UHGV virus genome: UHGV-0193479
From: a virus
Reading direction: 5' to 3' (one strand)
DNA: 14,009 nucleotides
This document shows, piece after piece, positions 3,080 to 14,009 of this stretch. The notes under the pieces are model-generated. The model had not been told where the DNA came from, did no database searches, and was given only the letters and a program-made list of their open reading frames with translations. The translations under genes were made by a program, and so were the position numbers. Numbering within the stretch: the first letter of the stretch is position 1; each line of letters opens with the position of its first letter.

Positions 3080-3817
3080 ATGGCCACACCAAACCCGCTG
3101 GCACCAACAAAAGGTGCTGGTACCACCCTCTGGGTTTACACCGGAACTGGTGATCCATACGCCAATCCGCTTTCAGACGTTGACTGGCTGCGCCTGGCAA
3201 AGATTAAAGACCTGCAGCCCGGAGAACTGACAGCTGAATCGGAAGATGACACCTACATCGATGATGAGAATGCCGACTGGACATCAACGATGCAGGGGCA
3301 GAAATCAGCCGGTGAAACAAACCTGACGCTCGCATGGATGCCGGAGGATTCCGGTCAGCAGGACCTGGTGAACTGGTTCGATGAAGGCACCGTGAAGGGG
3401 TATAAAATCAAATATCCGAATGGTGTTGTCGATGTCTTTAAGGGCTGGGTGAGCAGTCTCGGCAAGACCATCTCGTCTAAAGAGGTCATGACCCGCACGG
3501 CAAAAATCACCAACAACGGCAAACCATCACTGGCAGAAGACAGTGGTGCCGCGCCGATTGCTGTCACGGGGATCAGCCTGGATAAATCCACTGCAGCTGT
3601 TGCGGTCGGTGAAACTGTGCAACTGGTTGTATCTGTTCTTCCGGCCAGTGCGTCAGATAAATCCTTCCGCGTATCGTCAGCTGACCGGGCCAAAGCCACA
3701 GTTACGGCTAACGGTAACACACTGACGGTCACCGGCGTGGCGGCAGGCACCGTCGAAATCATCGTTATGAGCAATGACGGTAACTTTGTGGCGATCTGCA
3801 AAGTCACTGTTTCCTGA
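3080..3817 (+). CDS. V: Major tail tube protein, lambda gpV-like, with C-terminal Ig-like (Big_2-type) domain
   Basis: 245 aa; [44 protein letters not shown]… matches lambda V ([44 protein letters not shown]…). C-terminal …[37 protein letters not shown]… parallels the lambda V Ig-like domain. Confidence 0.95.
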
Positions 3818-3853: not shown

Positions 3854-4276
3854 ATGTTTCTAAAGAGCGAACTGCTTGAATGCAACGGCAGCAGCGTCAC
3901 ATTGTTCCAGCTTTCGGCGCTTCAGCGTATTGAATACCTCGAATACCTGAAGCAGCTGGAGGCAGTTGAAGCTGGCGATTTTCAGGCGGCCATCACCCTC
4001 ACCGTAAAAAGTGGGGCGTTCCTCGTGGCGATGTCACTCTGGCACGGCCACGAACTGAAAGGCTCCCAGGGAGAAAATGCGGCGGCGGAAGTGGCAAAGA
4101 TTCAGGATGAGGTCATGCAGTCATGGCCGACCGAACTGGTTGCCGAAGCGGAATATAAGGTGAAACTCCTGTCCGGGATGATTGCGCCTGTCATTGAAGA
4201 ACCGACTTCATCCGGTGAAGAACGTAATGATCCCGCTGAACCCGTTACTGCGGAAAAGTCCTCGCCAGTGAGCTGA
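3854..4276 (+). CDS. G: Tail assembly chaperone, lambda gpG-like
   Basis: 140 aa; MFLKSELLECNGSSVTLFQLSALQRIEYL…GAFLVAMSLWHGHE…PAEPVTAEKSSPVS matches lambda G (MFLKTESFEHNGVTVTLSELSALQRIEHL…GAFLVAMSLWHNH…PAEPVSAGKCSTVS). Confidence 0.93.
   Translation: MFLKSELLECNGSSVTLFQLSALQRIEYLEYLKQLEAVEAGDFQAAITLTVKSGAFLVAMSLWHGHELKGSQGENAAAEVAKIQDEVMQSWPTELVAEAEYKVKLLSGMIAPVIEEPTSSGEERNDPAEPVTAEKSSPVS
4252..4258 (+). other. Candidate -1 programmed ribosomal frameshift heptamer (GGAAAAG) for G-T fusion protein
   Basis: T reading frame is the -1 frame relative to G and is open from 4240 (after TGA 4237..4239) while G ends at 4276. The only slippery-like motif in the 4240..4276 overlap is G GAA AAG at the codons corresponding to the lambda G GGA AAG site (A-E-K here vs A-G-K in lambda, from memory). 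Confidence 0.5.
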
Positions 4277-4284
4277 AATTTGCC

Positions 4285-4605
4285 ATGAAACTGGCGCGTG
4301 AGTTCGGTCGCCCGGACTGGCGTGCCATGCTTGCTGGCATGTCCTCTACGGAGTACGGCGACTGGAAAATCTTCTACCAGGACAATTACTTTCATGATGC
4401 GCAGCTGGACGCACATTTCTCCGGCTTGCTCTACACCATCTCAACCCTGTTTTTTGCCGATCCGGAGTTAACCCCGGACAGTTTCAGCATTCTTTCCTCT
4501 GCACCGGAAGCCATCGACATCGATGATCCGGATGACGATACGCTGATGGCGAAGGCTGCAGGTATTTCAGGAGGCGTGCGCTATGGCCCAGACGGCAGTC
4601 GGTGA
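4285..4605 (+). CDS. T: Tail assembly protein T-like; probably expressed mainly as a G-T fusion by -1 frameshift, approx. join(3854..4258,4258..4605)
   Basis: 106-aa ORF from first ATG, in the -1 frame relative to G and immediately downstream. Position between G and the tape measure gene matches the conserved G/GT arrangement of lambdoid phages. 3' end overlaps H start by 23 nt. Confidence 0.85.
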   Translation: MKLAREFGRPDWRAMLAGMSSTEYGDWKIFYQDNYFHDAQLDAHFSGLLYTISTLFFADPELTPDSFSILSSAPEAIDIDDPDDDTLMAKAAGISGGVRYGPDGSR

Positions 4606-7099
4606 TCTGGTCGTTAACCTTGACGTTAACTCGACAAAATTCAACGAGCAGCTCAGCTACGTCAAAAAAGAATTAAAACAGACCGGCAATACGGCAAACG
4701 ATGAAGCGTTACGTATCCAGCAGTCCTTCAGCCGCCAGGAGAACGCCGCGCGTAAGGCCGGTATTTCAGTGGGTCAGTATAACGCAGCGATGCGTATGCT
4801 CCCGGCGCAGTTTACTGACGTGGCCACGCAGCTGGCGGGTGGGCAGAACCCCTGGCTGATTCTGCTTCAGCAGGGCGGTCAGGTTAAGGACTCCTTTGGC
4901 GGGATCATTCCGACATTCCGGGCGTTGCTGGGGACGATTTCCCCGTTGATGGTCGGCATTGGTGCATTGTCCGTTGCAACGGGCGCGTTGTTCTATGCCT
5001 GGTACCAGGGCTCTTCCACTCTGTCTGATTTCAACAAAACGCTGGTACTGTCGGGGAACACAGCCGGACTGACAGCTGACCGCATGCTGGCACTGGCGCG
5101 GAACGGACAGGCAGCGGGGCTAACGTTCAACCAGACCAGTGAAGCCCTGACCGAGCTTATCAATGCAGGTGTGCGTACTGGCTCGCGCTTTGATGAAATG
5201 AGCCAGGCGGTGGCGCGGTTTACTGATGCCTCCGGCGTGCCGGTGGAGAAAGTCGCTGCAGCCTACGGCAAGCTCGCAACTGACCCGACATCGGGCCTGA
5301 TCGCGATGGCCCAGCAGTTCCATAACGTTACCGCAGAACAGATTGCCCATGTGGCGCAGCTGCAGCGTGCCGGTGATGAGGCTGGCGCACTGCAGGCGGC
5401 TAACGAGGCGGCTACAGCCGGATTCAACGATCAGACCAAAGCCATCCGCGACAATATGGGGACGATAGAGTCTTCAGCGGACTCCCTGAAGCGCGCCTTC
5501 AAGTCGATGTGGGATGCAGCCCTCGATATTGGCCGACCTGACACCGCGCAGGAGATGGTGGCAAAAGCCGAAGCCGCGTTCAAAAAAGCTGATGAAATCT
5601 GGAACCTGCGTAAAGGTGACCGATATGTCAATGCTGAGGCTCGCGCCCGATTCTGGAATGACCGCGAAACGGCCAGGCTTGCGCTGGATATGGCGCAGCA
5701 GCAGGCGGGAATTGCCAGGGCGAACGAAGAGAATGCATCGCGCGAAGCGGCTGCGGAATCGGATCGCCAGAAGTATGCTGCGCAGGCACAGGCAAACTAT
5801 GCCAAAACGCAGACGGCACTGGAGAAATACACGGCCAGGCAGAGCGAGCTCAACAAGGCGCTGAAAGAGGGGCGGATCCTCCAGGCTGACTACAACATCA
5901 ACCTGGCTGCCGCGAAAAAAGAGTACGAAGACACCCTTAAAAAGCCGAAGAAGACCCCGGCAATCAGAACCCCCGCAGGTGCCCGTGCCACCGATACGGC
6001 CAGTGCCCAGACGCTGGAGCTACAGACACAGCTGCGCACCCTGCAGGAGCATAAGAGCATCAATGACACCATCAGCCAGCAGCGTCAGGAGCTGTGGCGT
6101 CAGCAGTCCCGCTTTACGGTTCTGGAAGAGGCCGCGAAGACCCGAACGCTTTCTGCTGAGGAAAAATCCCTGCTGGCCAGTAAAAGTGAGGTGCTTTCCC
6201 GTGCGGAGCTGAATGCGAAGCTTGGCGATCAGATAGTGGCGCAGGAGCGGCTTAACCGCCTGCAGGATACGTCCCAAAAATACGTCACGCAGATCGGCGA
6301 GAAAACCCGAGCCCTTGCGGAAAGTGCTGGTATGAGCAGTCGTGCAGCACAACGCCGCAATGAGGAGGCCCAGCTTCTTCAGGGCTGGAAAAATGGTGGC
6401 GGTTCGGAGAACGACGCTGGTTATCAGAATGAGCTGCAGGCGCTGCAGGCGTATTACGCCGAGCAGGATAAGCTGCGGGACGACTGGCAATCCGGGGCCA
6501 AATCCGCATGGGCAGATTATGTTGATTCCGCTTCAGATGCTTATGGCCAGATGAAGTCGGTTGCCACCAGTACGTTTGATGGCATCGGGCAGAATATGGC
6601 AGACATGCTGACACGCGGAAAGGCTGACTGGGCTGACTTTACCCGCTCCACGCTCTCCATGCTGACACAAATTCTGCTGAAGCAGGCAATGACCGGACTG
6701 GTAGATTCAGCCTCCACGGCGCTGGGGTTTGCCAGCGGGGGATTCACCGGTTCGGGTGGGAAATATGAACCCGCAGGTGTCGTTCACCGTGGCGAATTTG
6801 TTTTCACCAAAGAGGCTACCAGTCGGATCGGCGTCGGCAATCTTTACCGGATGATGAAAGGCTATGCCACGGGAGGGTATGTCGGGGGCGGTGGTACAGG
6901 CCCGGCTGCAGCACCTTTCGGTGTCAGTGTATATGCCCCGGTGACGGTCGAGAATGCTTCCGGTAACGCACAGCAGCAAAACGACGGAGACAGGCTGGGT
7001 AAGGCGTATGAGCAGGTGATTAATAAATCTGTCAACGAGGGTATCGCCAGGGCAATCCAGCCCGGTGGGCTTATCTGGAATGCGACCAATCGCAGGTAA
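4583..7099 (+). CDS. H: Tail tape measure protein, lambda gpH-like
   Basis: 838 aa; VGDLVV…AGISVGQYNAAMRMLPAQFTDVATQLAGGQNPWLILLQQGGQVKDSFGG… and C-terminal GGFTGSGGKYEPAGVVHRGEFVFTKEATSRIGVGNLYRMMKGYATGGYVG match lambda H over essentially the full length (lambda H recalled as 853 aa). RBS AGGAGG at 4569..4574. Confidence 0.97.
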   Translation: MAQTAVGDLVVNLDVNSTKFNEQLSYVKKELKQTGNTANDEALRIQQSFSRQENAARKAGISVGQYNAAMRMLPAQFTDVATQLAGGQNPWLILLQQGGQVKDSFGGIIPTFRALLGTISPLMVGIGALSVATGALFYAWYQGSSTLSDFNKTLVLSGNTAGLTADRMLALARNGQAAGLTFNQTSEALTELINAGVRTGSRFDEMSQAVARFTDASGVPVEKVAAAYGKLATDPTSGLIAMAQQFHNVTAEQIAHVAQLQRAGDEAGALQAANEAATAGFNDQTKAIRDNMGTIESSADSLKRAFKSMWDAALDIGRPDTAQEMVAKAEAAFKKADEIWNLRKGDRYVNAEARARFWNDRETARLALDMAQQQAGIARANEENASREAAAESDRQKYAAQAQANYAKTQTALEKYTARQSELNKALKEGRILQADYNINLAAAKKEYEDTLKKPKKTPAIRTPAGARATDTASAQTLELQTQLRTLQEHKSINDTISQQRQELWRQQSRFTVLEEAAKTRTLSAEEKSLLASKSEVLSRAELNAKLGDQIVAQERLNRLQDTSQKYVTQIGEKTRALAESAGMSSRAAQRRNEEAQLLQGWKNGGGSENDAGYQNELQALQAYYAEQDKLRDDWQSGAKSAWADYVDSASDAYGQMKSVATSTFDGIGQNMADMLTRGKADWADFTRSTLSMLTQILLKQAMTGLVDSASTALGFASGGFTGSGGKYEPAGVVHRGEFVFTKEATSRIGVGNLYRMMKGYATGGYVGGGGTGPAAAPFGVSVYAPVTVENASGNAQQQNDGDRLGKAYEQVINKSVNEGIARAIQPGGLIWNATNRR

Positions 7100-8205: not shown

Positions 8206-8916
8206 ATGCGTCAGAAAACCATCGATGCGATTATGGCGCATGCTGCAGCTGAATATCCTCATGAGTGTTGCGGCGTGGTGGCGCAGAAAAGCCGCGTTGA
8301 ACGTTATTTCCCGTGCCGGAATCTTGCCGAGGCGCCGGAGGACAATTTTGTCCTTTGCCCCGAAGACTACGCAGCTGCTGAGGACTGGGGAACGGTGATC
8401 GCCATCGTTCACAGTCACCCTGACGCCACAACGCAACCGAGCGAACTGGATAAAGCGCAATGCGACGCAACGCTTTTACCCTGGCATATTGTGAGCTGGC
8501 CGGAGGGGGATTTACGCACCATCCAGCCGCGCGGAGAACTGCCGCTGCTGGAGCGTCCGTTTGTGCTTGGACACTTCGACTGCTGGGGGCTGGTAATGAG
8601 CTATTTTCGGCAAACGCATGGTATCGAACTCCACGATTACCGGGTTGATTATCCCTGGTGGGAAAACGAATATCCGGACAACTTCTATCAGGATTGCTGG
8701 TATGAGTGCGGTTTCCGGGAATTCGACGGGCCACCGAAACCCGGCGATATGGTGATCATGCAGGTCCAGGCTGATAAGTGGAACCACGCGGGAATTCTGC
8801 TGGAGGGAAATATGCTGCTGCACCACCTGTACGGACATCTGAGCCAGCGCGTGCCGTATGGTGGCTACTGGCAGGAAAGGACGATGAAGATCGTCAGATA
8901 TAAAACGCTTCTATAG
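8206..8916 (+). CDS. K: Tail assembly protein K-like; N-terminal JAB/MPN (JAMM) metalloprotease motif plus C-terminal NlpC/P60-type Cys-His peptidase domain
   Basis: 236 aa; JAMM signature E…HSHPDATTQPSELD (E-x(n)-H-x-H-x7-S-x2-D) and downstream DCWGLV…H typical of NlpC/P60. Position between L and I as in lambda. RBS AGGAG at 8197..8201. Confidence 0.93.
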   Translation: MRQKTIDAIMAHAAAEYPHECCGVVAQKSRVERYFPCRNLAEAPEDNFVLCPEDYAAAEDWGTVIAIVHSHPDATTQPSELDKAQCDATLLPWHIVSWPEGDLRTIQPRGELPLLERPFVLGHFDCWGLVMSYFRQTHGIELHDYRVDYPWWENEYPDNFYQDCWYECGFREFDGPPKPGDMVIMQVQADKWNHAGILLEGNMLLHHLYGHLSQRVPYGGYWQERTMKIVRYKTLL

Positions 8917-8937
8917 CCCACTCAGGTGGGTTTTTTT
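8917..8937 (+). terminator. Rho-independent terminator after K
   Basis: Seen in sequence: CCCAC-TCAG-GTGGG followed by TTTTTTT (8931..8937), starting directly after the K stop codon (TAG 8914..8916). Confidence 0.7.
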
Positions 8938-9081
8938 AAACCCCGCATTTCACCGCGCACCGCACGCGCAATTCAAACCAAGAACCTTTCAGGATGCACC
9001 TTGAGGAACCGGCTGGCTGTCGGAGCCTTCTTGGGGCCGTTTTCCTGTGCGACAAGGTTCATCACTAAAAGGTAATCCGAT

Positions 9082-9591
9082 ATGCAATATCCAACCGTAT
9101 CTGTAAACGGCGTATCAGTTCGTGTCGATAACGAAGGACGTTATAATCTTAATGATCTCCACGCCGCAGCGGTGGCTGAAGGCAAAGCCACTGAATCACA
9201 GCGACCAGGTGAGTTTCTCAAAACCAAGCAAGTAAGGCGATTTGTTCAAGCCTTGAGCGATGCGAAGAAAATCGCATCGGTTATGACAATTAAGGGGGGA
9301 CCATTTCAGGGCTCCTGGGGGCTTGAACTTATCGCTATACGCTATGCAGCCTGGCTCAATCCGCTTTTTGAAATCAAAGTCTATGAGACATTTCAAATGC
9401 TAATGCGTCGCGGGTTCGATGCCATGTCTCGCTTGAATAAAATCGACCATGTGATTAACACCGAAACCAAAGCGATCAGCCAGTGCGCCAGCCAGATGGC
9501 CAAGTGGGGTGTTGGTGGCCGCAAGCGGCTTCTACACACAGCACGGGAGCGTGTAGCTGATGAAGTACAGATGTATCTCCCCGGTATTTAA
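9082..9591 (+). CDS. KilA-N domain protein (cargo/moron gene, function unknown)
   Basis: 169 aa. N-terminal region …VSVRVDNEGRYNLNDLHAAA…RPGEFLKTKQVRRFVQAL…GSWGLELIAIRYAAWLNPLFEIKV… fits the KilA-N pattern (I/V-R-x-D-x-x-G-x-x-NLNDLHKA…WL…K). Inserted between K and I, where lambda has no gene. Confidence 0.7.
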   Translation: MQYPTVSVNGVSVRVDNEGRYNLNDLHAAAVAEGKATESQRPGEFLKTKQVRRFVQALSDAKKIASVMTIKGGPFQGSWGLELIAIRYAAWLNPLFEIKVYETFQMLMRRGFDAMSRLNKIDHVINTETKAISQCASQMAKWGVGGRKRLLHTARERVADEVQMYLPGI

Positions 9592-9679: not shown

Positions 9680-10093
9680 ATGAAAAGAATTTTAGTTTTT
9701 ACCTCCATCTTAATGGTTGCCGGTTGTGCAACTAAGCCGGTGACAAATGAACAAGCACAGGATGTTCCTGCAAAACAGGTTATCAGCAATACACTGCTAG
9801 TAAAAAAAGAAGGGACTGGCAAGGTAATAATCAAACGAGACTCTGGTTTTATGGGCAGCGCCTGCATGACCCGAGTTTATGTTGATGGCAAGGAGGTCGC
9901 AGACTTAGATACAGCTCAAAAGGTAACGGTCTATCCCAAAATTGGAGATCATATCTTTAGCGCTTGGCCCAAAGGTATGTGTGGCGGAGGCATGAGCGAA
10001 CAGTCGGGTAAGGTGACAGATACTGGGGTTTTGATGTTTAGAGTTGGTTACGGAACCAACGGTGATTTTGGTATCTACCCTACAGCATTTTGA
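9680..10093 (+). CDS. Predicted lipoprotein (cargo/moron gene); signal peptide with lipobox VAG|C, Ala at +2
   Basis: 137 aa from ATG 9680: MKRILVFTSILMVAGCATKP… has n-region MKR, hydrophobic h-region and lipobox V-A-G-C. GGGGA RBS-like purine run upstream. The ORF-track start 9560 overlaps the KilA-N gene 3' end in another frame and precedes the signal peptide, so 9680 is preferred. Confidence 0.72.
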   Translation: MKRILVFTSILMVAGCATKPVTNEQAQDVPAKQVISNTLLVKKEGTGKVIIKRDSGFMGSACMTRVYVDGKEVADLDTAQKVTVYPKIGDHIFSAWPKGMCGGGMSEQSGKVTDTGVLMFRVGYGTNGDFGIYPTAF

Positions 10094-10112
10094 ATGCAGC
10101 AATTATATATAA

Positions 10113-10135
10113 CCTCGCTCAGGCGGGGTTTTTTA
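10113..10135 (+). terminator. Rho-independent terminator after lipoprotein gene
   Basis: Seen in sequence: CCTCGC-TCAG-GCGGGG (6-bp stem with one G-U wobble) followed by TTTTTTATT; 20 nt after the lipoprotein stop and 17 nt before the I start. Confidence 0.7.
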
Positions 10136-10151
10136 TTATTAAGAGGTTTAT

Positions 10152-10742
10152 ATGTCTGAAGCAATGACTCGAATTGAGCTCGGCGGCGAACCCGGTAAAA
10201 TATTTGGTAAAACTCATTGGCGACTTATCAGTAAAGTTTCTGAAGCAGGTGTAGCACTCGCAAAAACAATCACCGGGTTTGAAAGTTATATGGTAAACAG
10301 CAAGCGCCGCGGACTAACCTTTGCCATTTTTAAAGGAAAGAAAAACATAGGAGTTGATGACCTAGGTTTTCCGGTAACTGGTGAAGTGGTCAGGATTGTA
10401 CCGGTTATCATCGGAAGCAAAAAGGCTGGTTTACTTCAGACAATATTGGGTGCTGTTATTGTTGCAGTAGGTGCCATTGCTACATTTGGTTTTGCCCAGG
10501 CTTGGGGTGTAAATGTAATGATGGCTGGTGGAGCTATGATGGCGGGTGGCGTCGTCCAGATGTTATCTCCTCAGCCAACCGGATTAGCCAGCAAACAAAG
10601 TGCAGATAACCGTGCATCGTATGCGTTTGGCGGGGTAACCAACACTGCAGCGCAAGGCTACCCAGTGCCTCTGCTTTATGGTAAGCGTCGAATCGGCGGA
10701 GCGATTATTTCTGCCGGAATTTATGTCGAAGATCAACAGTAA
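10152..10742 (+). CDS. I: Tail assembly protein I-like (lambda gpI family)
   Basis: 196 aa; glycine/alanine-rich hydrophobic segment GAVIVAVGAIATFGFAQAWG…MMAGGAMMAGGVVQMLSPQP and C-terminal …PVPLLYGKRRIGG… parallel lambda I (…GAAAIAGSFFTAG…LGGVAQMLAPK…VLPVLYGEMRVGS…). Position between K and J. Clearly more divergent from lambda and more AT-rich than the flanking tail genes. Confidence 0.88.
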   Translation: MSEAMTRIELGGEPGKIFGKTHWRLISKVSEAGVALAKTITGFESYMVNSKRRGLTFAIFKGKKNIGVDDLGFPVTGEVVRIVPVIIGSKKAGLLQTILGAVIVAVGAIATFGFAQAWGVNVMMAGGAMMAGGVVQMLSPQPTGLASKQSADNRASYAFGGVTNTAAQGYPVPLLYGKRRIGGAIISAGIYVEDQQ

Positions 10743-10779
10743 ATTAATTAACTTATTAGCTGATAGGCAGGAGAAAACT

Positions 10780-11097
10780 ATGACTTTAGAAGAGCGCATG
10801 AGCATGCTTGAGGCAACCATCGCGAGCCTGCAGGTGGAGATAGCAGAGCTGCATAACCCGGCAATCGTCAATTCCGCCATTCAGAACGCACTACGGCCAG
10901 GTGGCGCTATTCATTCGACCATCACCGGTAATGGCTGGAGTTTGCGAGTAAAGGAGGGAAAGATTTCGCAGGGTGATGCAGGGGTTTTCGGTGGAACGGT
11001 AACAGCGGCCCAGAATGAGGCCGCTAAAACTCATGAAGAAATATTCAATGAAAAGCTCGATTTAATTATTTCTTTGATGCCACCTCTAAAACTTTAA
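10780..11097 (+). CDS. Hypothetical small protein (105 aa), predicted N-terminal coiled coil; cargo ORF between I and J
   Basis: ATG 10780 preceded by AGGAG (10769..10773). MTLEERMSMLEATIASLQVEIAELH… has heptad-like pattern. No similarity to a lambda protein recognised. The ORF-track start 10678 would overlap the I gene 3' end and is less likely. Confidence 0.5.
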   Translation: MTLEERMSMLEATIASLQVEIAELHNPAIVNSAIQNALRPGGAIHSTITGNGWSLRVKEGKISQGDAGVFGGTVTAAQNEAAKTHEEIFNEKLDLIISLMPPLKL

Positions 11098-11326
11098 GGA
11101 TGCGCGTGAACGCATCAATTGTGTGCGGATCATTACGTGCAGCTGATTCTGGGATTTTTGCTTGCCCTGCCTGATAGTTTTTAGTCAGAGCATCGAGTGC
11201 GCCTGGCCGGGCAATGTCCAGTAATTTCACAATGTCCGATAGAATCAGGCCAGTTGCAATTTCATGCGTAAGCAGCTTTTGTTTAAGCTCTGCCACTTCT
11301 TTTTCCAGTTCTAACATCGAACCCAT
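11066..11326 (-). CDS. Hypothetical small protein (86 aa), predicted N-terminal coiled coil; antisense to the late operon
   Basis: Minus-strand ORF MGSMLELEKEVAELKQKLLTHEIA… with a strong RBS on the minus strand (AAGGAG, 6-nt spacer, ATG at complement of 11324..11326). 3' end overlaps the convergent + ORF by 32 nt. Only convincing minus-strand gene in the window. Confidence 0.55.
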   Translation of the reverse strand: MGSMLELEKEVAELKQKLLTHEIATGLILSDIVKLLDIARPGALDALTKNYQAGQAKIPESAARNDPHTIDAFTRILKVLEVASKK

Positions 11327-11457
11327 TTACTTCTCCTTTTTCCAGAGGTAATCAGCCATTCCACCTGTTATGAGTTCACCAGCGTCCCACCGCTGGCGGG
11401 CTGAATCCACAACATAACCAGGTGTTTAGATTTTTAACATCCTGATATTCAGACAGT

Positions 11458-11480
11458 AGCCACCTTTGGGTGGCTTTTTT
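11458..11480 (+). terminator. Rho-independent terminator immediately upstream of J
   Basis: Seen in sequence: AGCCACC-TTTG-GGTGGCT followed by TTTTTT (7-bp perfect stem); ends 11 nt before the J start codon. Orientation-specific: on the minus strand the A-run precedes the hairpin. Confidence 0.6.
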
Positions 11481-11491
11481 ATGGGCGCAAT

Positions 11492-14009
11492 ATGGCTACA
11501 GATAAAGTGTTAAAAGGCCGCAAGGGCGGCAGCTCAAGTTCCCGAACCCCTACCGAACAGCCTGATGATCTGCAATCTGTAGCGAAGGCAAAAATCCTCG
11601 TTGCGCTTGGGGAAGGGGAGTTTGCTGGACAGCTCACCGGCAAAGATATCTACCTGGACGGAACAGCGCTGGAGAATGCTGACGGCTCCCAAAACTTCAG
11701 CGGGGTAACGTGGGAGTTTCGCGCGGGAACGCAGGCGCAAAAATATATTCAGGGTATTCCCGGTACCGAAAACGAGATCAGCGTAGGAACTGAGGTATCA
11801 AGTGCCACAGCCTGGACGCGCACGTTTACCAATACGCAGCTTTCAGCAGTTCGCCTGCGTCTTAAATGGCCCTCGCTTTTCAAACAGGAAGACGACGGCG
11901 ATCTGGTGGGTTACTCGGTCAATTATGCGATTGACCTGCAGACTGACGGCGGCACATGGCAGACGGTACTCAATACCAGCGTGACCGGCAAAACGACGTC
12001 TGGTTATGAGCGCAGCCACCGTATCGATTTACCGCAGGCTGGCAGCACATGGACAATACGTCTGCGTAAGATTACCTCTGACGCCAACAGCGCGAAGATC
12101 GGCGACACGATGATGCTGCAGAGCTTCACCGAGGTGATTGACGCCAAACTGCGCTACCCGAACACCGCGCTGCTCTACGTCGAATTCGACTCAAGCCAGT
12201 TCAACGGCTCTATTCCTCAAATTTCATGCGAACCGCGCGGCCGCGTTATCCGCGTTCCAGATACCTACGACCCTGAAACCCGCACTTATAGCGGTACATG
12301 GACCGGTGCGTTTAAGTGGGCATGGACGGATAACCCTGCGTGGATTTTTTACGACCTGGTTGTTTCTGACCGGTTCGGCCTTGGGCACCGTTTGACCGCT
12401 GCGAATATTGATAAATGGACGCTTTATCAGGTTGCTCAGTATTGTGATCAGATGGTACCAGACGGCAAAGGGGGCAACGGTACAGAACCACGCTATACCT
12501 GCAACGTGTACATTCAGGACCGGAACGACGCCTACACAGTCCTGCGTGATTTTGCCGCTATCTTCCGTGGCATGACCTACTGGGGCGGGGATCAGATTGT
12601 GGCCCTGGCTGACATGCCGCGCGATGTTGATTACAGCTATACGCGCGCTAACGTTGTTGGCGGTCGCTTCACCTATTCGAGCAGCACCACGAAAAGCCGC
12701 TACACCACAGCGCTGGTTTCATGGTCAGACCCGGGTAACGCTTATGCCGACGCGATGGAGCCGGTATTTGAGCAGGCGCTGGTGGCGCGGTACGGCTTCA
12801 ATCAGCTGGAAATGACAGCCATCGGCTGCACCAGGCAGTCAGAGGCGAACCGAAAGGGGCGCTGGGGTATTCTCACCAATAACAAGGATCGCGTTGTTTC
12901 GTTTGATGTCGGGCTGGACGGAAACATTCCGCAGCCGGGCTACATCATCGCCGTGGCAGACGAGCTGCTTTCCGGAAAGGTTATGGGCGGCCGCATCAGC
13001 GCCGTTAACGGTCGCGTTATCAAACTTGACCGCGTAGCTGATGCAGCACCAGGTGATCGCCTTATTCTCAACCTGCCTTCCGGAGCGTCGCAGAGCAGGA
13101 CCATTCAGGCCGTGAACGGGGAATCAGTCACAGTCACCACGGCATACAGTGAGACGCCACAGGCCGAAGCTGTTTGGGTGGTTGAATCTGACGAGCTTTA
13201 CGCGCAGCAGTATCGTGTTGTCAGCGTTTCCGATAACAATGATGGCACTTTCTCGATTACCGGCGCTTTGCACGATCCGGATAAATATGCGCGTATCGAT
13301 ACCGGTGCCATTATCGACCAGCGGCCAATAAGTGTAATTCCGCCCGGTAATCAGTCCCCGCCAGCTAATATCGCGATCAGTTCGTTTTCTGTCGTTCAGC
13401 AGAATATCAGCGTTGAGACCATGCGCGTCAGCTGGGACCAGGCGAAAAATGCTATCGCGTATGAGGCACAGTGGCGTCGCAATGACGGGAACTGGGTGAA
13501 TGTGCCGCGCAGCTCCACCACGTCATTCGATGTTCCGGGGATTTATGCAGGACGCTACCTGGTTCGCGTGCGTGCCATCAATGCCGCCGAAATTTCATCT
13601 GGGTGGGGCTATTCAGAAGAGAAAACGTTGACGGGTAAAGTGGGAAACCCACCGAAGCCGGTTGGCTTCATCGCTTCTGAAAACGTGGTATTCGGTATCG
13701 AGCTGAACTGGGGATTCCCGGCGAATACCGAAGACACGCTGAAGACGGAAATTCAGTACAGCCTGACCGGTAGCGAAGATGATGCAATGCTGCTGGCCGA
13801 TGTGCCTTATCCGCAGCGCAAATATCAGCAGATGGGTCTTAAGGCAGGGCAGATTTTCTGGTATCGCGCGCAACTGGTCGACAGAACGGGAAACGAGTCC
13901 GGGTATACCGACTGGGTGCGAGGTCAGGCCAGCATCGATGTTTCCGATATCACCGATGTGATCCTGGAGGAGATCAAAGACTCCGCTACGTTTAAAGATC
14001 TGATTGAGA
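11492..14009 (+). CDS. J: Central tail fibre / host specificity protein, lambda gpJ-like (3'-truncated by window edge)
   Basis: Open frame from ATG 11492 to the window end with no stop (checked at start, middle and end), about 839 codons. …VAKAKILVALGEGEFAG…, …LRYPNTALLYVEFDSSQFNG…, …RTYSGTWTGAFKWAWTDNPAWIFYDLV…, …YQVAQYCDQMVPDGKGGNGTEPRYTCNVYIQ… are collinear with lambda J (…CYPNTALVGVQVDSEQFG…, …RQYSGIWDGTFKPAYSNNMAWCLWDML…, …GQYCDQSVPDGFGGTEPRITCNAYL…). Absent from the ORF track only because it has no stop in the window. Confidence 0.95.
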   Translation, partial: MATDKVLKGRKGGSSSSRTPTEQPDDLQSVAKAKILVALGEGEFAGQLTGKDIYLDGTALENADGSQNFSGVTWEFRAGTQAQKYIQGIPGTENEISVGTEVSSATAWTRTFTNTQLSAVRLRLKWPSLFKQEDDGDLVGYSVNYAIDLQTDGGTWQTVLNTSVTGKTTSGYERSHRIDLPQAGSTWTIRLRKITSDANSAKIGDTMMLQSFTEVIDAKLRYPNTALLYVEFDSSQFNGSIPQISCEPRGRVIRVPDTYDPETRTYSGTWTGAFKWAWTDNPAWIFYDLVVSDRFGLGHRLTAANIDKWTLYQVAQYCDQMVPDGKGGNGTEPRYTCNVYIQDRNDAYTVLRDFAAIFRGMTYWGGDQIVALADMPRDVDYSYTRANVVGGRFTYSSSTTKSRYTTALVSWSDPGNAYADAMEPVFEQALVARYGFNQLEMTAIGCTRQSEANRKGRWGILTNNKDRVVSFDVGLDGNIPQPGYIIAVADELLSGKVMGGRISAVNGRVIKLDRVADAAPGDRLILNLPSGASQSRTIQAVNGESVTVTTAYSETPQAEAVWVVESDELYAQQYRVVSVSDNNDGTFSITGALHDPDKYARIDTGAIIDQRPISVIPPGNQSPPANIAISSFSVVQQNISVETMRVSWDQAKNAIAYEAQWRRNDGNWVNVPRSSTTSFDVPGIYAGRYLVRVRAINAAEISSGWGYSEEKTLTGKVGNPPKPVGFIASENVVFGIELNWGFPANTEDTLKTEIQYSLTGSEDDAMLLADVPYPQRKYQQMGLKAGQIFWYRAQLVDRTGNESGYTDWVRGQASIDVSDITDVILEEIKDSATFKDLIE

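Follow-up and report, generated by a model that had tools for sequence, protein, structure and literature searches.

A KilA-N gene among the tail genes of a lambdoid prophage lies on a late-operon cassette with a terminator and a pseudoknotted leader RNA

What is a gene for a regulator-like protein doing among the tail genes of a lambdoid prophage, and how could its expression be controlled there? The gene (9082-9591, + strand) encodes a KilA-N/ORF11CD3-like protein of 169 aa. It lies in a window of 14,009 nucleotides, which is the whole stretch of DNA analysed (UHGV virus genome UHGV-0193479); coordinates below refer to this window. The first-pass annotation had recognized a KilA-N domain, found its position in a tail operon unusual and offered several roles for the product: a regulator of the adjacent lipoprotein gene, an antirepressor-like or host-toxic factor, or a part of an exclusion or defence module.

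The KilA-N protein and its place in late operons

A lambdoid prophage in E. coli isolate VREC0864 is 100% identical to the window, and its site adjoins yecD/aspS. According to open reading frames and Pfam, PHROG and RefSeq assignments, the gene order of the window is that of the lambda late operon. The major capsid gene E (262-1287) is followed by FI, FII, Z and U, the tail tube gene V (3080-3817) by G/T, and the tape measure gene H (4583-7099) by M, L and K; J starts at 11492 and runs past the window end. Two extra genes are located between K and I, and two more between I and J. The K-I insert is bounded upstream by tail gene K (8206-8916, + strand; Prok-JAB and NlpC/P60 peptidase by Pfam, PHROG and RefSeq) and downstream by tail assembly gene I (10152-10742, + strand; phrog_32, E 3e-68, and RefSeq). 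Its G+C content is 0.41-0.50, versus 0.52-0.58 in the flanking genes.

The second insert, between I and J (10678-11475), also has a G+C content below that of the flanking genes. It comprises an ORF of 124 or 139 aa (10723 or 10678 to 11097, + strand; phrog_22477), a convergent ORF of 86 aa (11066-11326, − strand; phrog_23209) and a terminator-like hairpin (11458-11475) just 5' of the J start. The tail chaperone ORFs G and T (3854-4605) are read in different frames, and a GGAAAAG stretch (4251-4257) stands close to where G ends. T is labelled a pseudogene in RefSeq; the arrangement looks like the usual programmed frameshift and not decay.

The domain call of the first-pass annotation was correct, and the peptides that it quoted occur in the protein. 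Pfam places PF04383 (KilA-N) at aa 9-109 (9106-9408) with 56.6 bits against a curated cut-off of 23.8 (E 2.6e-15), PHROG 129 matches the whole 169-aa protein, and the product is already named KilA-N domain-containing protein in RefSeq. In the AlphaFold2 model (pLDDT 81) aa 5-92 form a beta-beta-alpha-alpha-alpha-beta-beta-alpha domain, followed by a long helix (aa 94-142) and a second helix (aa 146-165). The predicted fold is of the KilA-N/APSES alpha+beta type, and the Mbp1 APSES domain was matched. A search of PDB sequences gave no relative of the protein. Since dN/dS is 0.03-0.07 in both halves against 12 homologues (synonymous sites being saturated), both domains are under purifying selection, and 9082-9591 is a real gene under strong purifying selection.

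The C-terminal 60 aa or so had been described as lacking any recognizable feature; this part can now be interpreted. Pfam gave no direct ORF11CD3 (PF10549) match for the window protein, and a search of its C-terminal 65 aa against 1.84 billion representatives returned only 19 matches, most of them to fragments of this family and none to an informative fusion. A homologue from PhiR49_1, annotated as 'KilA-N-ORF11CD3' (XSB42956.1, 165 aa), aligns to aa 13-169 of the window protein (29% identity, E 2e-17), and its own C-terminal 53 aa (aa 109-161) match PF10549 with E 2.4e-13. The C-termini of the two proteins alone align with E 8e-5. Because of this alignment and the PF10549 match of the homologue, the helical hairpin at aa ~116-169 (9427-9588) is read as a divergent ORF11CD3 domain, probably too divergent for Pfam scoring. 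The same two-domain layout and size are found in the KilA-N-ORF11CD3 protein Sb54 of ST64B, which shares 68.6% identity with the window protein. The genes of PhiR49_1 and ST64B follow Rz in the late region, whereas the window copy stands between K and I.

Surprise at the tail location was overstated. An IMG/VR scan yielded 80 loci encoding relatives with 73-100% identity, and in all 80 the gene lies in a late tail or lysis cluster, co-oriented with the structural or lysis genes. Its upstream neighbour is K in nine loci by tblastn (clustering of upstream neighbours puts eight of them together); elsewhere it is a V-type tail tube protein, a tail sheath protein, a tape measure protein, Rz or endolysin. 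In 31 loci the gene is preceded by tail assembly chaperones and a 221-aa protein, itself located after the major tail protein. Among named phages, the gene follows the lysis genes in ST64B (Sb54), UPF_BP1 and PhiR49_1 and stands between the tail tube region and the tape measure gene in Klebsiella phage 2b LV-2017 and Salmonella phage 29485. Given the late neighbours in the related loci and in these phages, the KilA-N family is a late-operon insert, and the window protein adds one more member, at a position usual for the family, to a group already known and annotated.

The leader RNA and the genes that follow it

The 165 nt from the K stop codon to the KilA-N start codon are conserved as DNA in 307 phage records, where they precede different genes. 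They contain a structured RNA leader of ~120 nt (8955-9073, + strand; covariance-model match 8938-9084), located 5' of the coding region and outside the span to which the first-pass annotation was confined. The leader folds as a three-way junction with a covarying loop-bulge pseudoknot. Its elements on the + strand are the P1 mini-hairpin (GCGC 8955-8958/GCGC 8966-8969), the basal helix P2 (ACCUUU 8984-8989/AAAGGU 9068-9073, the latter holding the Shine-Dalgarno sequence), a helix GAUG 8993-8996/CAUC 9060-9063, P3 (CCUUG 8999-9003/CAAGG 9053-9057), P4 (AGGA 9004-9007/UCCU 9043-9046) and the apical P5 (9009-9023) and P6 (9025-9037). The pseudoknot joins the loop CGCAC (8961-8965) to the bulge GUGCG (9047-9051).

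A covariance model built from nine sequences (R1) scores the window leader at 147.7 bits. It gave 58 matches in 56 of 57 sources (two sources with two copies, L046 with none), all on the + strand, each directly 5' of a start codon and nowhere else. Among 49 distinct leaders, standard pairs occupy 92.9% of cells, versus 40-45% with slid partners; changes on both sides occur in 24 of the 35 model pairs, and the covariation score is 0.47 versus 0.06-0.11 in slid controls, figures that are inflated because the alignment was fitted to the model, the pseudoknot excepted. The pseudoknot is absent from the model. It is nevertheless paired in 96.2% of cells, with changes on both sides in five of five pairs, and each of the 16 distinct loop/bulge combinations can form 5 or more contiguous base pairs: besides CGCAC/GUGCG of the window, they include CACAC/GUGUG, CUCAC/GUGAG, UCUCC/GGAGA, CGCGU/ACGCG and UGCCC/GGGCA. 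The pseudoknot is the strongest evidence for a structured leader RNA. RNAalifold on a plain MAFFT alignment of 36 leaders recovered 2 pairs because the leader types are out of register, a problem that the nine-sequence covariance model solved.

The predicted paired probability of the Shine-Dalgarno sequence is 1.0 in the window and 0.89 on average across the 49 leaders. A leader peptide was considered and rejected: the open frame differs among leader types, type B has stops in all frames, and no ORF is conserved across the types. With E values up to 1 allowed, Rfam 15 models matched neither the window nor the leaders of six divergent loci, and no description of the leader was retrieved when papers were searched for its sequence strings or by topic.

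Different genes follow the leader. They encode KilA-N proteins, KilA-N+P63C proteins, P22_AR_N+ORF11CD3 proteins ('ant' of 933W and other Stx phages, between R and Rz), Phage_pRha, AntA, HNH_3 endonuclease and one uncharacterized family. The leader also precedes the PhiR49_1 and Sb54 genes (38.5 and 133.5 bits, respectively). Of 5426 complete E. coli genomes, 875 (16%) contain the leader, at 2960 sites in all and with up to 10 copies in one genome; O157:H7 genomes carry it in every case among the matches listed, again in up to 10 copies, adjoining the lysis and Shiga-toxin late region. Its hosts are phages of Escherichia, Salmonella, Klebsiella, Hafnia and others; the IMG/VR leader scan was queried with the leader type of the window. 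Leader type and cargo are shuffled across loci: at one locus a protein 96% identical to that of the window follows a leader of only 45% identity, and at another the protein is 76% and the leader 93% identical. One leader serves unrelated antirepressor-type genes. The cassette found in late operons combines a terminator, a pseudoknotted leader that sequesters the Shine-Dalgarno sequence, and an antirepressor-type gene that can be exchanged.

Several single loci deserve mention. In the same prophage, outside the window, a second leader (L001:4375-4507, 58 bits) has the same pseudoknot, CGCAC/GUGCG; next comes an ORF of 206 aa that weakly matches Phage_Tail_Tip and stands between the lysis genes and the small terminase gene. 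In phage Dewey (L002:3001-4190), as in ECP1, an HNH_3 endonuclease gene stands between the leader and the KilA-N-ORF11CD3 gene, i.e., a homing-type gene took over the leader position. In BTP1 (L220:38560-38710) the CDS annotated as 'rha anti-repressor' (38644-39249) shares its first ~65 nt with the leader match; translation probably begins further downstream than annotated, the likely start codon being the ATG at the match's 3' end. On the minus strand of Gifsy-1 (L217:33278-33390), directly after the isrJ sRNA terminator and before tRNA-Arg, there is a weak, shortened leader-like match (10 bits, E 0.9, not significant), which may be a decayed copy.

Blocking of an antirepressor-type gene at its ribosome-binding site by RNA pairing, as predicted for this leader, is known from P1/P7 c4 RNA, Gifsy-1 isrK and P22 sar. 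In these systems, however, the block is an antisense or trans-acting RNA, whereas in the window it would be an intramolecular pseudoknotted fold. The Rfam families C4, c4-a1b1 and isrK match Gifsy-1 but not the window leader, nor does the isrJ model. Homology to the isrK/anrP locus of Gifsy-1 was rejected, as this is a c4-type system to which R1 has no match. In that phage a terminator precedes the translationally silent anrP message (PMC4825925).

If the fold occludes the ribosome-binding site, there would have to be some route by which translation is switched on. The leader could be a sensor or operator and not a passive brake; its pseudoknotted fold would then be remodelled, and the ribosome-binding site freed, by a small ligand, a protein of phage or host, RNase III or an RNA acting in trans. 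The three-way junction, the covarying pseudoknot, the nearly invariant GCGC/GCGC stem of P1 and several conserved unpaired positions exceed the needs of occlusion, and nucleotide conservation in the leader is higher than at synonymous sites of the adjacent gene. The near-absence of variation in P1 suggests that its sequence, not only its shape, is recognized. By its complex conserved fold, covariation and link to the ribosome-binding site, the leader resembles riboswitch-like cis-regulatory elements, the ligand being hypothetical. However, no candidate ligand or partner emerged and the cargo genes are non-metabolic. The cargo proteins are unlikely to regulate their own synthesis, belonging as they do to unrelated families; a domain common to all of them, tried as a basis for autoregulation, was rejected, as the families lack profile similarity and the P63C, AntA and HNH cargoes lack ORF11CD3. 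A search for a complementary trans-acting RNA in the 41-kb prophage region returned only chance-level matches, none of them convincing. A sensing function is considered rather improbable. It would make the leader an undescribed class of responsive riboregulator of temperate enterobacterial phages, in which a signal remodels the pseudoknot and frees translation of the antirepressor-type gene, timing its release in multi-prophage cells; this extension is equally speculative. Such a signal might come from a metabolite, a late protein of the phage, RNase III or an RNA.

Expression and possible role of the gene

The first element of the cassette is an intrinsic-terminator-like hairpin, AGCCCAC-TCAG-GTGGGTT followed by 7 T (8915-8937, + strand), which overlaps the K stop codon. 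Of 112 distinct leaders, 91 have a terminator-like hairpin with a T-run on their 5' side, usually at a distance of 15-19 nt from P1. A second hairpin of this kind, AACCTCGC-TCAG-GCGGGGTT with a T-run (10111-10136, + strand), closes the insert just 5' of the ribosome-binding site of gene I. This terminator 3' of the lipoprotein gene (CCTCGC-TCAG-GCGGGG-T6-AT) is similar to the pre-leader consensus of other phages, GCCTCGC...GCGGGGC-T6-AT; terminators common to cassettes could be recombination boundaries for swapping.

No sigma-70-like site was detected between 8917 and 9081, which is a weak result because the scan was simple. Type-B leaders (L004:3940-3965; e.g., L013, L016 and L050) have a perfect or near-perfect TATAAT in the spacer between P1 and P2, such as CGTTATAATCC, so a start site of their own is possible for some copies; transcription from inside these leaders might remove P1 and the pseudoknot. 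The window's leader has no TATAAT between P1 and P2.

Extra DNA between conserved late genes, a lower G+C content and a 3' terminator are features that the insert shares with lambdoid morons (e.g., lom, bor and cor): it separates genes that are adjacent elsewhere, and the hairpin at 10111-10136 lies downstream. Unlike morons, it has a terminator at its 5' end, and the simple scan detected no promoter of its own. Judged by the predicted signals, this arrangement favours late expression over expression in the lysogen. In BTP1, where a leader match precedes rha, only bstA, cI, pid, gtrA and gtrC were reported as highly expressed in the lysogen across 22 conditions (PMC7067206). For the KilA-N gene, late timing is suggested by the upstream terminator, by the absence of a predicted promoter and by RNA-seq data of a different phage (BTP1).

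In our best explanation, to which we assign a probability of about one half, the gene encodes an antirepressor-type regulator that is transcribed late, gated at translation and carried on a mobile cassette between K and I. The terminator at 8915-8937 would stop RNA polymerase unmodified by Q, so that the gene would be transcribed only within the Q-antiterminated late transcript. The folded leader would then keep translation low or conditional, and a potentially harmful regulator would thereby be silent in the lysogen. During lytic growth the protein, judged by the company it keeps, could act as an antirepressor-like factor, binding repressors or their DNA sites, of its own prophage or of co-resident ones, so that lytic commitment would be reinforced or broadcast. 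The downstream lipoprotein would be a separate insert, of a kind that includes superinfection-exclusion proteins such as Cor.

The antirepressor-like activity, proposed because the leader is common to Ant, Rha and AntA genes, because the C-terminus is of the ORF11CD3 type as in Stx-phage Ant, and in view of a deletion in Phi24B, is a tentative part of this explanation, to which we would give less than an even chance; it would consist in reinforcing or spreading lytic commitment. Ant of Stx phages (933W ant, Phi24B 'd_ant', between R and Rz) shares with the window gene the leader RNA (82.7% nucleotide identity), the ORF11CD3-type C-terminus and the late-operon place. It differs in its N-terminus, which is P22_AR_N instead of KilA-N, and the window protein and 933W Ant have no detectable similarity. 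This Ant is regarded as a putative antirepressor, and for 'd_ant' of Phi24B, the leader-linked gene, control by a small RNA pairing inside the gene was proposed, the leader being unmentioned (PMC4426718). Deletion of an ant gene of Phi24B lowered late-promoter activity after induction (PMC3064807), though the ant of that study may be another copy than the leader-linked one.

In domain content the window protein differs from both P22-type Ant and P1 KilA: Pfam finds KilA-N as its sole domain, with P22_AR_N and ANT domains absent, and KilA-C/ANT (PF03374) unmatched at E up to 1. KilA-N is a DNA-binding fold, whereas classical P22 Ant targets a protein. Among the roles suggested in the first-pass annotation, the antirepressor-like one remains the best supported, through the leader and the ORF11CD3-type C-terminus held in common with Ant; the defence role has less in its favour.

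An unlikely alternative is a host-killing or shutoff protein like KilA of P1, made late, for which the leader would only limit toxicity. The N-terminal domains of the two proteins are homologous (32.7% identity over aa 8-104, E 3e-9), and double silencing by a terminator and a hidden ribosome-binding site fits a toxic product. P1 KilA, however, is defined by host killing, is encoded in the C1-controlled kilA-repL operon and has the KilA-C/ANT domain that is missing here; moreover, a late product has a short time to act before host lysis.

Prophage defence of the BstA kind is also unlikely, to much the same degree. Here the protein would be made in the lysogen, recognize invading phage DNA and abort infection, with the lipoprotein as a superinfection-exclusion partner. 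BstA of BTP1 is likewise the product of a prophage accessory gene and has an N-terminal KilA-N-type domain (PMC8585504). Lipoproteins are frequent after the KilA-N gene, one of them being a homologue of the Cor superinfection-exclusion protein (phrog_1119, E 1e-32), and host-benefit genes are common among tail-region inserts. On the other hand, BLASTP against BTP1 BstA is not significant (E 0.51). BstA has 307 aa and its gene adjoins cI in the immunity region, is co-transcribed with cI and is highly expressed in lysogens, whereas the window gene stands between K and I, away from the repressor. PADLOC gave the KilA-N protein one weak, partial match (PDC-S22, E 0.0023), and NCBIfam was unhelpful. 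The upstream terminator and the hidden ribosome-binding site are ill suited to constitutive expression in the lysogen, and the genes reported as highly expressed in BTP1 lysogens do not include the leader-linked rha.

The neighbouring lipoprotein and the significance of the cassette

The lipoprotein gene (9680-10093, + strand) encodes 137 aa with the lipobox LMVAGC and belongs to phrog_890, an uncharacterized family spread over Enterobacterales, Xenorhabdus, Yersinia and Vibrio. In Klebsiella prophages the same lipoprotein gene stands alone between K and I, 41 nt after K and without the KilA-N unit (1326 blocks listed), and other loci have different content at this junction; in Yersinia prophages it is located between T and the tape measure gene. 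About 45 nt 5' of its start codon move together with it. The KilA-N gene, in turn, is followed by members of at least nine unrelated small lipoprotein families, including the Cor homologue, or elsewhere directly by tail genes. By a crude count, a lipoprotein follows a leader-linked gene in roughly one quarter of contexts, against a background of ~3% of ORFs. The lipoprotein is thus an independent insert and not an obligate partner of the KilA-N gene; the slot 3' of the KilA-N gene attracts lipoprotein inserts, with no fixed pair. A transcriptional regulator dedicated to the lipoprotein gene, as had been suggested, is very improbable: in the window as well as in six related loci, the two genes stand side by side in the same orientation, and lipoproteins are enriched in this position, but the lipoprotein occurs alone at K-I in Klebsiella and at another tail junction in Yersinia, carries its own upstream region, and the neighbours of the KilA-N gene vary.

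The protein alone is ordinary; the cassette, chiefly its widespread pseudoknotted leader, appears to be undescribed. In late operons, a single structured RNA with no match in Rfam stands before at least five unrelated families of antirepressor-type genes. The 'antirepressor' genes found in late regions are not misplaced early genes, which corrects a habit of annotation. If the leader gates the translation of antirepressors, it would bear on prophage cross-induction and hence on the biology of Shiga-toxin phages.
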